13,959 bases of DNA, taken from Promethearchaeota archaeon. GTDB lineage: Archaea > Asgardarchaeota > Thorarchaeia > Thorarchaeales > Thorarchaeaceae. Position numbers and translations under genes: made by a program. The notes beneath the pieces are model-generated. The model ran no database searches. It was not told the origin of the DNA and saw only the letters and a list, made by a program, of their open reading frames with translations. Shown here in pieces: positions 8,667 through 13,620 of the stretch (the stretch's first letter is position 1; each line of letters opens with the position of its first letter). The DNA lies in contig JBHLPF010000044.1 of NCBI GenBank assembly GCA_048939765.1, positions 3,950-17,908 of the forward strand, written 5' to 3'.

Positions 8667-8672
8667 TTATAT
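8667..8672 (+). promoter_or_regulatory. Candidate TATA box for the HTH-iscS-like operon
   Basis: TTATAT about 55 nt upstream of the probable ATG 8726. Typical archaeal spacing would put the transcription start near 8695, inside the inverted repeat. Confidence 0.4.
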
Positions 8673-8682
8673 GGAACCATTC

Positions 8683-8711
8683 TTCACTATTGTGAATGAA
8701 ACAATAGTGAA
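8683..8711. promoter_or_regulatory. 11-bp perfect inverted repeat, putative operator
   Basis: TTCACTATTGT-gaatgaa-ACAATAGTGAA. It includes the near-palindrome TTCACTATTGTGAA (8683-8696) and lies between the candidate TATA box and the RBS (GAGGGT) of an HTH regulator gene. Confidence 0.65.
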
Positions 8712-8725
8712 TGAGGGTCAGATGG

Positions 8726-9187
8726 ATGTCAGAGTCGAAACCTAAGCAGCGGAAAGTTAGAAAGTGGTTGATGCCTCAAGAGGTGGAAGTCTGGTATGTT
8801 CTCCCTGCAATAAGAAGAGAGCTTGCTAAGGTGATGAAGTTTGATAGAGGCCAAGCTCAGAAGACCATTGCCCGCATGCTCGGAGTGACAGAGCCAGCTG
8901 TAACTCAATATATGCTCAGCAAGAAGGACAAGCCTAAACGATCCAGAGGCGATCAAGTGGACATTCCTGACAGTCTAAAGCCCGAGCTTCTCAAGTCGGC
9001 GGATGAAATGATTGAAGCTTGGAGCAAGACAGACCCACGTGATCCAAGTGACCACGCCTATGAAACTACAACAAGAGAGATAAATCGCCTCATTGAGGTC
9101 TTGCGGGATGACGGAGATCTGTGTGACATCCACAGAGAGCACTGCGAAGGCGTCCACATGGACTGCAATGCATGCAAAACGGAGTAA
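8726..9187 (+). CDS. Archaeal HTH transcriptional regulator (COG2522-like) with Cys/His-rich C-terminus
   Basis: MPQEVEVWYVLPAIRRELAK, HTH AQKTIARMLGVTEPAVTQY, SRG, and C-terminal CDIHREHCEGVHMDCNAC. ATG 8726 was chosen because it follows GAGGGT; the ORF track starts at 8711. Confidence 0.85.
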   Translation: MSESKPKQRKVRKWLMPQEVEVWYVLPAIRRELAKVMKFDRGQAQKTIARMLGVTEPAVTQYMLSKKDKPKRSRGDQVDIPDSLKPELLKSADEMIEAWSKTDPRDPSDHAYETTTREINRLIEVLRDDGDLCDIHREHCEGVHMDCNACKTE

Positions 9188-9194
9188 GATAGGT

Positions 9195-10406
9195 GTGGCC
9201 TATTTTGACAACGCTAATTCTACTCAGGTAGATGAACGTGTGATTGAAGCGATGCTCCCCTATTTCAGGGAGTACTATGGAACAGCTGGTCTTGAACTCA
9301 GTCATTCAAGGGATGTAGCAGCACTTAGGGGTCTCGAAACCGCCAGGAAGATAGTCGCAGACTCGCTTAATGCGGATCCGAGAGCGATAGTGTTCACTTC
9401 AGGTTCCACAGAGTCAAACAATCTGGCAATTCGCGGGACAGCCATTGCCAACAAGAAGCGTGGCAAGCATATCATAACTACTCCAATTGAACATCAGTCG
9501 GTCTTGGAATCATGCCGAAGACTTTCTGACGCAGGATATGACATCTCTTATCTCAGTGTAGATGAGTACGGACTTGTGGACATTGATGAGCTTCTAAGTA
9601 CGATTAGAAAGGACACGCAGTTGATTTCGGTTCAACATGCGAACGGGGAGATAGGCACTCTACAGCCTATAGGCGAGATAGCAAAGATAGCTGCTGAGAA
9701 AGACATTATGTTTCACACTGATGCAACTCATACCTTTCTCAAGGTGCCTATTGATACAGAAGCCAATCCTGTCAATCTTATTACTCTCGATGGTCATCAC
9801 ATTCATGGTCCAAAGGGAATAGGTGCGTTATTCATTAGAAGAAAGACGCGAATCACGAGGGTAATGGAAGGTGGCGATGAGGAGCGGCGCCTTAGACCCG
9901 GAGTGGAGAACATTCCAGCAGCGGTCGGATTAGGAAAAGCCATTGAGATTTGGGGCGAGAATGATACCGAGTACCTTCTATCGCTCCGTCACTATATGGA
10001 AAAGAGAATCTCAGAGAGTCTGACTGGTTTCAAGATAACAGGCCACCCGGTAGATCGAGTCCCACATATTTTCAGCATGGTCATTGAAATGATAGAGGGC
10101 GAAGCCATCCTTGTTCATCTGGATATGGAGGGATTTGCAGTCTCCACAGGTTCTGCATGTTCATCAAAGACACTGACTGGCAGTCATGTGCTCAAGGCCA
10201 TCGGGCTGCCTCCAGAGATATCACATGGTTCAGTGAGAGCATCCTTCTCAAGGTTCAACACCAAAGAGGAGATCGAAGACTTCGTTGAAGCCCTCGTACC
10301 AGTTGTTGAACGGTTGAGGGAGTTCAGCCCACTCAGAACTGGAGGGTACTTTGCAGAGGCCGACGAGAATGACCATCACCATGATTTACCAGACGACGAC
10401 TGGTGA
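9195..10406 (+). CDS. Group I cysteine desulfurase (IscS/NifS) homolog lacking the PLP-binding lysine
   Basis: YFDNANST, FTSGSTESNN, EHQSV, ANGEIG, HTDA, GPKGIG, STGSACSS (Cys at 10158) and GSVRAS are present, but SxHK is replaced by DGHH (9789-9800). Start is GTG 9195 (7 nt after the regulator stop) or ATG 9168. Confidence 0.9.
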   Translation: MAYFDNANSTQVDERVIEAMLPYFREYYGTAGLELSHSRDVAALRGLETARKIVADSLNADPRAIVFTSGSTESNNLAIRGTAIANKKRGKHIITTPIEHQSVLESCRRLSDAGYDISYLSVDEYGLVDIDELLSTIRKDTQLISVQHANGEIGTLQPIGEIAKIAAEKDIMFHTDATHTFLKVPIDTEANPVNLITLDGHHIHGPKGIGALFIRRKTRITRVMEGGDEERRLRPGVENIPAAVGLGKAIEIWGENDTEYLLSLRHYMEKRISESLTGFKITGHPVDRVPHIFSMVIEMIEGEAILVHLDMEGFAVSTGSACSSKTLTGSHVLKAIGLPPEISHGSVRASFSRFNTKEEIEDFVEALVPVVERLREFSPLRTGGYFAEADENDHHHDLPDDDW

Positions 10407-10529: not shown

Positions 10530-10793
10530 TTGACTGAAAAGAAACGAAGAATAGTGCAAGTTGTGAGAGATGTCATCTACGGAATGGCATTTCATGGCAT
10601 GGCAAGATATGCTCTAAAGACACGTATGTACCTTGAAAACCTGTTTCTGATTCTAACATATGGTGATATGCTAGGTATACCGATTCTTCCGCCTTATTAT
10701 TCATTGAAGCTCCTACCTTATGCGGTTCCCAATATCAGAAATTGGAAGCGGACATTATTCAAGGAACGTGACTTCACAGACTCGCTTTATTGA
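10530..10793 (+). CDS. Small protein resembling the CstA/ArsA-associated small-protein family
   Basis: TTG start after GAGGT. The pattern LENLFLILTYGDMLGIPILPPYYSLKLLPY..P....WKR..KE.D matches, from memory, small proteins encoded beside CstA and ArsA-family ATPases. Confidence 0.7.
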   Translation: MTEKKRRIVQVVRDVIYGMAFHGMARYALKTRMYLENLFLILTYGDMLGIPILPPYYSLKLLPYAVPNIRNWKRTLFKERDFTDSLY

Positions 10794-10931: not shown

Positions 10932-11342
10932 ATGGATCGTGATCAGCTTGTTAAATTGTTTGACAGACAGATAGATGTCGAAGACAGAGCCATCAAAGCA
11001 TATGGGGATGCGTTGGCGATGATTGGGAACTTCGCATTCAGACTCATTTTTGAAGGACTTCTAATGGACTCCAAGAAACACAAAAGAATCTTCGAGGTCC
11101 TTAAAGAGAACATAATGCTTCCTCCGTCGGAATGGGATCTGGCTGTGAGTAAGAAAATCGGTGAATATGTTTCCCCAATCGAGCTTGAAAGGCATATAAA
11201 ACTGGAAGAGGGAATGATTGAGCTAATTAAGAAGAACGCGAAATCAGTGGAGGACAAGACAATACGAAACCTTCTTGAACATGTCCTTGAGGATGAGGAA
11301 CGTCACCACTCTGTCATTAAGAAACTAATCGCCCAGCTCTAA
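10932..11342 (+). CDS. Ferritin-like/rubrerythrin-like four-helix-bundle protein
   Basis: Two helical-hairpin repeats, E..A...Y....DSKKH and E..M....DEERH. There is no rubredoxin domain. GAGGGA RBS and an AT-rich TATA-like ATAATAAAT at 10866-10874. Confidence 0.8.
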   Translation: MDRDQLVKLFDRQIDVEDRAIKAYGDALAMIGNFAFRLIFEGLLMDSKKHKRIFEVLKENIMLPPSEWDLAVSKKIGEYVSPIELERHIKLEEGMIELIKKNAKSVEDKTIRNLLEHVLEDEERHHSVIKKLIAQL

Positions 11343-13194: not shown

Positions 13195-13554
13195 CTATGG
13201 CATCATATGCCGCTCAGATGAGATGAATGCATCAATCATTCGGCAAGAAGGACAGCCATAGCTTTGATACTCAGTTCCTGCGAGGGCACCTACCATCATC
13301 TTCTCTACAGCCAATCCAAATCCGGACTTCTCATGTAGGTCAAGATGGTAGCCAGATTCCTTGGAAGCCTTGCTTAATTCGGAAACCTGCCTGTAGAAGG
13401 CGTCATTGCTCATCGAGAACATGAAATGAAAGACACTGGCGTTCTTCACGTGATCTCGAAGGCGCACGACCGCATAGCCATCAGTAGTGTCATGCTTCTC
13501 GCGATACCGGATATCAATACTCAGGATGTCCTCAGGTCCAACCATTATTCCCAT
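13195..13554 (-). CDS. Hypothetical protein with a C-terminal CxxC (CPSC)
   Basis: 119-aa ORF filling the gap, with an AGGTG RBS and a TTTTAAAG TATA-like box (13598-13605) upstream. No family recognised. Confidence 0.7.
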   Translation of the reverse strand: MGIMVGPEDILSIDIRYREKHDTTDGYAVVRLRDHVKNASVFHFMFSMSNDAFYRQVSELSKASKESGYHLDLHEKSGFGLAVEKMMVGALAGTEYQSYGCPSCRMIDAFISSERHMMP

Positions 13555-13597: not shown

Positions 13598-13620
13598 CTT
13601 TAAAAGTTAACTATAGTGAT
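13598..13620 (-). promoter_or_regulatory. TATA-like box with an adjacent operator-like palindrome
   Basis: Minus-strand TTTTAAAG (13605-13598), preceded by TTAACTATAGTGAT (13607-13620, + strand). The latter is 12/14 identical to the palindrome TTCACTATAGTGAA. Confidence 0.45.

Follow-up and report, generated by a model that had tools for sequence, protein, structure and literature searches.

A lysine-less type I IscS homologue of an Asgard archaeon as a candidate non-catalytic partner of IscU

The window (the whole 13,959-nt stretch of DNA that was analysed) carries an open frame on the forward strand that encodes P0001, a full-length IscS homologue of 403 amino acids. It is preceded by the gene of an HTH protein, P0122, and by promoter- and operator-like sequences:

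8667-8672, forward strand: TATA-like box TTATAT of the regulator–IscS operon, a putative promoter element read from the sequence
8683-8696, no strand assigned: palindromic operator-like site TTCACTATTGTGAA, conserved in orthologous loci
about 8702-8711: partner half-site CAATAGTGAA, after the palindrome
8711-9187, forward strand: HTH protein P0122 with a C-terminal C-x2-H-x11-C-x2-C motif, from its homologues the probable transcription regulator of the operon
9181-9184, forward strand: ribosome-binding site GGAG, 10 nt 5′ of the GTG start, read from the sequence
9195-10406, forward strand: Lys-less type I IscS/NifS (MisS) homologue P0001 (Pfam, PDB, AF2, Foldseek)

P0001 scored 239 bits against PF00266 (Aminotran_5) in Pfam, which identifies it as a class V aminotransferase of fold type I, and HMMER aligned it with the PDB sequences of solved IscS-type desulfurases. 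Its AF2 model (pLDDT 87.9) reached a TM of ∼0.9 to NFS1, IscS and Archaeoglobus fulgidus IscS in Foldseek, and superposed on A. fulgidus IscS from the IscS–IscU complex with an rmsd of 1.4–1.6 Å. P0001 falls below every NCBIfam equivalog cut-off (NifS, 419.8 versus 530.75; IscS, 355.5 versus 643.2). The GTG at 9195 is supported as the start codon by the N-termini of orthologues (MAYFDNANS), whose start codon (ATG, TTG or GTG) occupies the corresponding position, and by the GGAG at 9181-9184. Most annotation pipelines label P0001 a ‘cysteine desulfurase’, a name that almost certainly misstates its chemistry.

The IscS homologue gene would be co-transcribed with the Cys/His-motif HTH regulator. 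Genes of the P0122 type lie immediately 5′ of the IscS homologue in orthologous loci L011–L017 and L040–L042, and orthologues suggest that the true start of P0122 is the ATG at 8726. Its 330 homologues, mostly from Thorarchaeota, are named merely ‘transcriptional regulator’. The palindrome is identical in L040, L041, L042 and L011, ∼88 nt 5′ of the Met of the regulator's MPQE, and is perfect in L014 and degenerate in L016 and L017. Orthologous loci also have a CTTAT(A/T) stretch, resembling the TATA-like box, just 5′ of it. Within the window, four strand matches to the palindrome were counted against 0.14 expected. Genome-wide, the operator is the sole perfect match, and the genes near three further one-mismatch sites (ABC-transporter-like and others) are not evidently Fe–S related. 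P0122 probably binds the palindrome over the promoter, and a dedicated non-Rrf2 regulator with its operator in the focal clade is a testable lead.

We take the PLP contacts of type I desulfurases to be His104, Asp180, Gln183, Ser203, His205 and Thr243′ in E. coli numbering. The corresponding features of P0001, together with its Cys loop and substrate Arg, were located by alignment:

9492-9494, forward strand: H100, equivalent of the PLP ring-stacking His
9720-9731, forward strand: D176-A-T-H179, the DAxQ motif with Q→H
9789-9800, forward strand: D199-G-H201-H202 replacing S-x-H-K (phosphate Ser→Asp, Schiff-base Lys→His)
9894-9905, forward strand: R234-P-G-V237 replacing R-S-G-T (partner-subunit phosphate Thr→Val)
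10146-10169, forward strand: Cys loop T318-GSAC322SSK, invariant in the clade
10236-10238, forward strand: R348, equivalent of the substrate-carboxylate Arg (63/63 in the clade)

HMMER aligned LDGHHIHGPKG of P0001 with FSAHKMYGPKG of the solved IscS-type desulfurases (S→D, K→H, with the first His kept), HTDATH with HTDAVQ (Q→H) and RLRPGVEN with GVRAGTEN (T→V). The codon of H202 is CAC (9798-9800); D199 is encoded at 9789-9791, H179 at 9729-9731, V237 at 9903-9905, C322 at 10158-10160 and R348 at 10236-10238. P0001 consequently lacks the Schiff-base Lys of a type I desulfurase and has the catalytic Cys in a mobile SGSAC loop, for which the low pLDDT at 321–327 is expected. As for the remaining PLP contacts, D176 and H201 are kept and three others are changed (Q→H, S→D, T→V). 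EH (H100), NxE (N150/E152), TGSACSSK and GSVRAS are present. The first-pass annotation had described DGHH, DATH and RPGV at these positions in a full-length frame that kept the Cys, NxE and the substrate Arg, and translation and alignment confirmed every substitution, coordinate and retained residue.

Conservation was examined in the focal clade of ∼60 orthologues (63–90% identity, Thorarchaeota and kin; 64 members aligned). The Schiff-base Lys is absent in 64/64, its column holding H in 40, L in 14, R in 8 and V in 2. No member has the normal SxHK Lys; missing from all 64 aligned members, the Lys was not lost through a sequencing accident. Position 199 is Asp in 61/64, H201 is found in 63/64, P235 in 64/64, and position 237 is V in 45 and I in 15 (60/64) beside an invariant R234, the stable substitutions in this alignment being limited to S→D, P235 and V/I237. 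The Cys loop with C322, N150, E152, D176, T72 and H204 are also invariant. Position 179, the Q183 equivalent, is H in 37 and Q in 25. Among 61 orthologues, position 100 is T in 27, V in 26 and H in 6; EH, reported at first as kept, is indeed kept in P0001 but is an exception in its clade, where T or V stands in 53/61. Since S→D and T→V/I each change a phosphate contact and most members no longer have the stacking His, stable PLP binding by the clade proteins appears unlikely. The former PLP and substrate contacts that are retained (T72, N150, D176, H201 and R348) might mean that the pocket still binds some ligand.

These five residues, with C322, would also speak for retained cysteine desulfurase activity, with PLP bound in the absence of the normal internal aldimine or with a different base. 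We consider this very unlikely, because the Lys column is variable and never Lys, Ser has become Asp, the partner Thr is lost and the stacking His is mostly lost. Moreover, replacement of the Lys has left A. fulgidus IscS, the precedent, inactive, and one ligand of the IscU cluster is a Cys of this protein (PMC7585200). Nor is K207 of GPKG a relocated catalytic Lys, as it is invariant in the clade but equally so in canonical enzymes.

The first-pass annotation had also suggested that the new His and Asp residues form a metal site. Such a site for a metal (Fe/Zn/Ni) or a small ligand in the former PLP pocket would comprise D176, H179, D199, H201, H202 and H204, with H100 in a sub-lineage. The query and its nearest relatives do have the full set (H at 100, 179, 201, 202 and 204, plus D176 and D199), H179 and H202 occur together in 32/64 members, and D176, H204 and, in all but one member, H201 are conserved. 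However, residues of the H201/H204 type are present in ordinary Lys-bearing IscS as well, and the positions that would be new vary across the clade: 202 is L, R or V in 24/64, 179 is Q in 25 and 100 is T or V in 53. Since the Lys position is H, L, R or V, the Q183 position H or Q, and the ring-stacking His mostly T or V, a conserved new metal site is argued against, and we regard this explanation as quite improbable.

The P0001 gene is under strong purifying selection. Its dN/dS is 0.053 against L040, the closest relative, and 0.026 against L041, the estimates being confined to these two relatives because dS was saturated (NG86 undefined) for pairs at ≤79% identity. We rejected, as having almost no chance of being right, the reading of the gene as a pseudogene in decay or as an artefact of assembly or sequencing. 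The adjacent IscU gene has indeed been lost in the window's genome, but the frame is open throughout, dN/dS remains 0.05 even for the two IscU-less loci, and the same motifs recur in ∼60 independent assemblies. It had been proposed that four changes in one pocket reflect repurposing rather than decay. The absence of decay holds, given the dN/dS of ∼0.05, the ∼60 orthologues and the invariant Cys loop, whereas a fixed four-change design does not, as columns 202 and 179 vary.

Orthologous loci have the order HTH/Cys-His regulator–IscS–IscU, with a canonical IscU (GNPVCGD...FGC...MHCS) directly 3′ in L011, L012, L013, L015, L016, L041 and L042. IscU has been lost from the P0001 locus in the window's genome: the adjacent gene is absent in the window, as in L040, and tblastn found no IscU remnant 3′ of the P0001 gene in the window. 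One IscU was found in the genome (assembly 88.5% complete), on contig C10. With the adjacent gene gone in both loci and a single IscU in an assembly of this completeness, the identity of the partner here is uncertain. The C10 IscU lies beside the other type I IscS found in the genome, in a TusA-DsrE-IscS-IscU operon. This paralogue is also without the Lys (K→D, SSND motif), scores 444 bits against 4eb5, compared with 317 bits for P0001, and belongs to a different clade. Among the desulfurase candidates found, only one keeps the Lys, a SufS-like protein of type II on contig C12. A search of the genome for IscU, a Lys-containing paralogue and Suf proteins thus returned the first on C10 but no type I paralogue with the Lys, and SufB/SufD (SMS), which are present in 18/31 family genomes, were not found in this 88.5%-complete one. 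The earlier idea that P0001 is a partner subunit of an active IscS therefore has no candidate, the C10 type I paralogue being Lys-less and the Lys-bearing protein type II. As the C10 paralogue is next to IscU, the organism already has an IscS–IscU pair without PLP chemistry. Since both type I paralogues found are without the Lys, the IscU-based Fe–S assembly of this genome probably proceeds, judging by sequence, without a type I enzyme that cleaves cysteine with PLP.

Taking A. fulgidus IscS as the model, we think it reasonably probable that P0001, a type I IscS/MisS homologue, is PLP-less and non-catalytic and partners IscU through loop C322 instead of performing desulfurase chemistry. Presumably free of PLP, P0001 would dimerise and dock the scaffold IscU (here the C10 IscU), and C322 would either coordinate the nascent [2Fe-2S] cluster or serve as its hand-over thiol, with sulfur drawn from free sulfide or another carrier and not from PLP-dependent cysteine cleavage.

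An overlapping explanation, which we judge rather unlikely, is a persulfide relay in which C322 takes sulfane sulfur from a TusA/DsrE-type carrier or the C12 SufS-like desulfurase and delivers it to an acceptor such as IscU. The genome does encode TusA, DsrE-like proteins and the Lys-bearing SufS-family protein, and other Lys-less IscS lineages are found in TusA-DsrE-IscS-IscU operons, namely the K→T clade (L045, L046), the C10 K→D paralogue and the K→L loci L019, L024 and L035. A TusA-like gene adjoins 6/7 other Lys-less loci versus 0/17 loci recorded as keeping the Lys, of which L021, L033 and L038 were assigned by their SHK motif. Against a relay in P0001, the flanks read of 10 focal-clade loci contain no TusA or DsrE gene, their conserved neighbour being the HTH regulator, and no transfer partner was identified. 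The TusA-DsrE linkage in the other Lys-less clades and the share of IscS representatives that keep the Cys without the Lys are testable leads on the supply of S and Fe to IscU in anaerobic archaea.

Lys-less, Cys-keeping IscS proteins account for 14/150 of the nearest cluster representatives (∼9%). The Lys changes may number 2–4, their direction not being fixed because backbone forks are open in a quick tree, and rooting with a SufS-like paralogue left these forks open, with an outgroup branch of 7.6 substitutions per site. With such a backbone, the loss in this clade may or may not be homologous with that in characterised proteins. A tree constrained to unite the focal and Methanosarcina acetivorans IscS1-type clades fits no worse than the free quick tree, itself open in its backbone (lnL +8.4, p-AU 0.71). 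Lys-less IscS is recurrent in archaea and already documented, and P0001 is a new Asgard lineage or variant; within the literature covered, nothing relevant turned up on Lys-less IscS from Asgard archaea or on operons of the TusA-DsrE-IscS-IscU kind.

P0001 has, in addition, a C-terminal extension:

10338-10403, forward strand: disordered acidic and His-rich C-terminal tail ...YFAEADENDHHHDLPDDDW (alignment, AF2)

The tail consensus is [DE]n-H-H-H-D-[LIV]-P-[EK]-D-[DE]-W, with the final W in 47/56 full-length orthologues, and the tail has a pLDDT <50 in the AF2 model. The acidic partners frataxin/CyaY and IscX act in bacteria and mitochondria. Speculatively, the tail might be a built-in Fe-binding or docking module with a frataxin/CyaY- or IscX-like role in cis (Fe(II) delivery to IscU or access gating), the old PLP pocket perhaps a sulfide or metal site, and the repeated archaeal Lys loss, usually with TusA-DsrE, a PLP-free sulfur route to IscU; we think this unlikely as a whole. 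If true, tail and pocket would make a self-contained, PLP-independent Fe–S assembly factor in Asgard archaea.

Among known systems, the comparison with A. fulgidus IscS made in the first-pass annotation was apt, given the inactivity and Cys ligand of that precedent and the presence of its structures 4eb5, 4hvk and 4r5f among the matches to P0001 in PDB sequence and structure searches. A. fulgidus IscS2 (AF0564; 4eb5, 4eb7, 4hvk, 4r5f) and P0001, both from archaeal anaerobes, share the type I fold, a replaced Lys and the mobile-loop Cys, as expected of Lys-less archaeal IscS. IscS2 is encoded beside IscU, as are the orthologues of P0001 (7 loci), but not P0001 itself or its L040 relative. It has SSND (H→N, K→D) with the Ser, Q-region and RSG(S/T) kept, in contrast to DGHH, DATH and RPGV in P0001, and only P0001 has the His/acid tail, the upstream HTH regulator and a locus without TusA-DsrE. 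In this genome it is the C10 gene, not P0001, that is orthologous to IscS2.

M. acetivorans IscS1 (MA0808), whose recombinant protein was insoluble, is also without the Lys and other PLP residues (PMC7585200). Proteins of this type (K→T, STGSACFS) are ∼48–50% identical to P0001, share DATH and R-[AP]-G-[VL]-EN with it, and are followed by IscU. They differ in having IEDF rather than IE[TVH], Ser203 kept, the Lys replaced by T, L or I, and no C-terminal tail, and their operon, TusA-DsrE-IscS-IscU(NifU_N+FeS_assembly_P), was found at none of the 10 focal-clade loci. The canonical E. coli IscS, human NFS1 and NifS share the fold, dimer-type architecture, Cys loop, substrate Arg and GPKG with P0001, but canonical type I desulfurases have the SxHK Lys, Q183, S203, T243 and H104, of which the Lys, Q, S and T are replaced in P0001. 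Finally, the archaeal MisS–MisU of the MIS system (Garcia et al. classification) is, like the clade of P0001, a two-gene IscS-like and IscU-like module of an anaerobic archaeon without chaperones or carriers. MisS is described as a cysteine desulfurase (PMC13066941), whereas the usual mechanism is not open to P0001, whose MisU neighbour has disappeared from the window's genome. P0001 extends the small set of Lys-less IscS proteins by an Asgard lineage.

The IscS homologue of the window, an ORF at 9195-10406 (+), translates into 403 residues that Pfam Aminotran_5 covers end to end (239 bits). Its likely start codon is GTG 9195, which has a GGAG 10 nt 5′ of it and matches the position at which the orthologous proteins start (MAYFDNANS). 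Of the solved structures, type I cysteine desulfurases match it best (A. fulgidus IscS2, human NFS1 and E. coli IscS among others). The AlphaFold2 model (pLDDT 87.9) shows the fold expected, with TM ∼0.9 to NFS1, IscS and A. fulgidus IscS and an rmsd of 1.4–1.6 Å to 4eb5/4eb7; the Cys loop (321-327) and the final ∼17 residues are disordered in it. The first-pass annotation had described a probable pseudo-desulfurase with a remodelled PLP pocket, and every substitution that it listed was borne out by HMMER alignment and a residue-to-coordinate check:

D199-G-H201-H202 (+), in place of S-x-H-K; H202 is CAC 9798-9800
D176-A-T-H179 (+), in place of DAxQ
R234-P-G-V237 (+), in place of RSGT
H100, N150/E152, the loop TGSAC322SSK and R348, kept

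A database search placed the query in a sharply bounded focal clade of ∼60 proteins (63–90% identity) from Thorarchaeota, 'Hermodarchaeota' and 'Promethearchaeota' MAGs, beyond which identity falls to ∼50%. The clade forms one cluster at the 50% clustering level (593 bits vs 373 bits for the next representative).

Residues in the focal-clade alignment (64 members where a denominator is given)
Schiff-base Lys column: H 40, L 14, R 8, V 2; K in none
Ser203 equivalent: D 61/64
Pro235: 64/64
Thr243 equivalent: V 45, I 15
Gln183 equivalent: H 37, Q 25
Ring-stacking His: T 27, V 26, H only 6

In this pocket, therefore, the Schiff-base Lys and two phosphate contacts are gone, as is the stacking His in most members. 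An Asp occupies the former phosphate-binding place and the positions nearest the cofactor ring have drifted, while T72, N150, E152, D176, H201, H204, K207, R234, C322 and R348 show little or no variation; residual catalysis by such a protein is unlikely. The query is under strong purifying selection, with dN/dS (NG86) of 0.053 against the gene of its closest relative (L040; 90% identical) and 0.026 against that of L041. Because of this, we rejected both a pseudogene and an artefact, and the earlier view of a maintained rather than decaying gene holds. The new His/Asp residues had also been proposed to form a metal site, but positions 100, 179 and 202 drift within the clade, and the H100/H179/H202 combination occurs only in the query's nearest relatives. 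This counts against a conserved new metal site, and the putative metal or ligand site in the former PLP pocket lacks conservation across the clade.

Another suggestion was that the query partners an active IscS. In the assembly (3.37 Mb, 108 contigs, 88.5% complete; the window is on contig C81), which the names of homologues assign to the Asgard archaea with Thorarchaeota-type relatives, three paralogues on other contigs are relevant:

C10:6379-7557, type I IscS, with SSND replacing SxHK exactly as in A. fulgidus IscS2 (444 bits to 4eb5)
C12, SufS-family (type II), Lys intact; TIGR01979 436 bits, just below the cut-off
C37:84094-85506 (L002), SufS-like (type II), with SANI replacing SxHK and no Schiff-base Lys; Cys kept in the RSGxxC region

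Both type I IscS proteins found are thus Lys-less, and no active partner is evident. SufB/SufD were not found in this 88.5%-complete assembly and are present in 18/31 family genomes. On balance we favour, with moderate confidence, the reading that the query is a PLP-less, non-catalytic IscS/MisS homologue. Following the proposal made for A. fulgidus IscS, it would use C322 to assist IscU in assembling [2Fe-2S] clusters, with the sulfur coming from sulfide or another carrier. The main caveat is that a scaffold role alone leaves the invariance of T72, N150, D176, H201 and R348 unexplained.

Loss of the Lys extends beyond the focal clade. The next-nearest relatives (∼48–50% identity), from methanogens, Thermoplasmatota and Heimdall- and Thor-type MAGs, carry the motifs IEDF, DATH, SAH[T/L/I]IHGPKG, NLR[AP]G[VL]EN and TGSACFSK. 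They are of the M. acetivorans IscS1 type; Deere et al. (PMC7585200) had remarked that IscS1 itself is without its catalytic Lys and further PLP residues, and suggested that it may act like A. fulgidus IscS. Of the nearest 150 50%-cluster representatives, the Lys is missing from 14, which have T, L, Q, M, D, S, R, G or H in its place, and all 14 keep the Cys. A 60-sequence ML tree resolved the focal clade, a clade with Lys replaced by Thr (K→T), two K→L groups, K→D (A. fulgidus and the C10 paralogue) and several Lys-containing groups; between 2 (well supported) and 4 Lys-state changes are required, the backbone not being settled by this tree. With the focal and K→T clades forced into one group, the tree came out 8.4 lnL above the free quick search (p-AU 0.71), which makes a single Lys-less ancestor with DATH and RxG[VL]EN compatible with the data.

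The K→T operons (L045:3362-5826, L046:2061-4580) have the conserved order TusA–DrsE_2–IscS–IscU(NifU_N+FeS_assembly_P). Similarly, the C10 operon (C10:5753-8346; loci L004, L047, L049) is TusA–DsrE-like–IscS–IscU, its 260-aa IscU being extended at the C terminus by a segment weakly similar to pyridine-nucleotide-disulfide oxidoreductases (Rossmann). A TusA-like gene adjoins 6/7 non-focal Lys-less loci and 0/17 loci counted as Lys-bearing; in three of the latter (L021, L033, L038) the automated Lys-site readout chose another motif and SHK comes from a separate reading. The literature searched yielded no description of this linkage. The TusA–DsrE linkage in other Lys-less clades suggests that the query might relay persulfide, a role overlapping with that of a non-catalytic IscU partner, but these genes are absent from focal-clade loci (no TusA-like gene adjoins any of 10).

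Instead, the focal-clade loci share a regulator and an operator-like site:

8711-9187 (+), HTH regulator, 158 aa, directly upstream of the query, with its stop codon 7 nt 5′ of the query's GTG
8683-8696, operator-like palindrome TTCACTATTGTGAA, just 3′ of a TATA-like TTATAT

The regulator combines a helix-turn-helix segment with a C-terminal C-x2-H-x11-C-x2-C motif, and its 330 homologues, mostly from Thorarchaeota, are annotated merely as 'transcriptional regulator'. Its gene lies 5′ of the IscS homologue in every orthologous locus examined (L011-L016, L040-L042) and of a Lys-containing relative in L017. The palindrome, far above chance expectation within the window and the sole perfect copy in the genome, is identical and equally distant in L040, L041, L042 and L011, perfect in L014 and degenerate in L016 and L017. 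The regulator would control expression at this conserved operator. A second, weaker copy (TTAACTATAGTGAT, 13607-13620, 2 mismatches) lies upstream of a 119-aa gene (13195-13554, −) that is syntenic in L040. A regulator paralogue (C94:24310-24696; 33% identity, same C..H...C..C tail) lies in a region (C94:22383-27500; L044, L051) with a DsrE-like gene, an Mrp/ApbC-like P-loop ATPase, a radical-SAM-like gene and several ∼80-aa Lrp/AsnC-ligand-domain-like ORFs.

Seven orthologous loci have a canonical IscU (121–134 aa) directly 3′ of the IscS homologue. In the window and L040 it is absent, and synteny picks up at a rubrerythrin-like gene. The ancestral unit was thus regulator–IscS–IscU, from which the query's lineage lost the adjacent iscU, and the IscS homologue is still strongly constrained despite that loss. 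The only IscU found by tblastn in the 88.5%-complete assembly is on C10. In iscU's place lies an 87-aa ORF (10530-10793) with a weak NCBIfam match to 'cory-CC-star protein' (29.8 bits vs a cut-off of 80); its L040 counterpart is a 69-aa gene annotated DUF7990, separated from IscS by two inserted genes, one for an Arf/Ras-like small GTPase and one of 286 aa. In L041, where iscU is intact, a 550-aa gene downstream of it is flanked by two extra, near-identical 56-aa ORFs (8942-9112 and 11101-11239) that look like the last third of IscU (LPPQKMHCSNLA...) and could be partial duplications or an insertion footprint.

The focal-clade proteins end in a tail predicted to be disordered (consensus [DE]n-H-H-H-D-[LIV]-P-[EK]-D-[DE]-W), with the terminal W in 47/56 full-length members. 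Lys-bearing, apparently canonical IscS of Loki-type genomes (L018, L029, L030, L034) end ...YMFD-x3-5-HHH, and some K→L proteins have a ...HHHDFE... tail. Judged from these sequences, the His-rich tail appears to be a wider Asgard IscS trait, older than Lys loss and independent of it. In E. coli IscS the C-terminal segment is near the IscU docking site, and it is thus plausible, if speculative, that the tail helps to bind IscU or to handle iron.

Lys-less archaeal IscS proteins are already known: the A. fulgidus one has been characterised by structure and biochemistry, and M. acetivorans IscS1 was remarked on in PMC7585200. The query is neither of these and belongs to a distinct Thorarchaeota-centred clade, on whose protein no paper was found in the literature searched. 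Compared with the known Lys-less proteins, four features set this clade apart: the pocket signature D-x-H-[HLRV] with P235 and V/I237, a terminal tail that is conserved, an operator and regulator dedicated to it, and a locus without TusA–DsrE genes.
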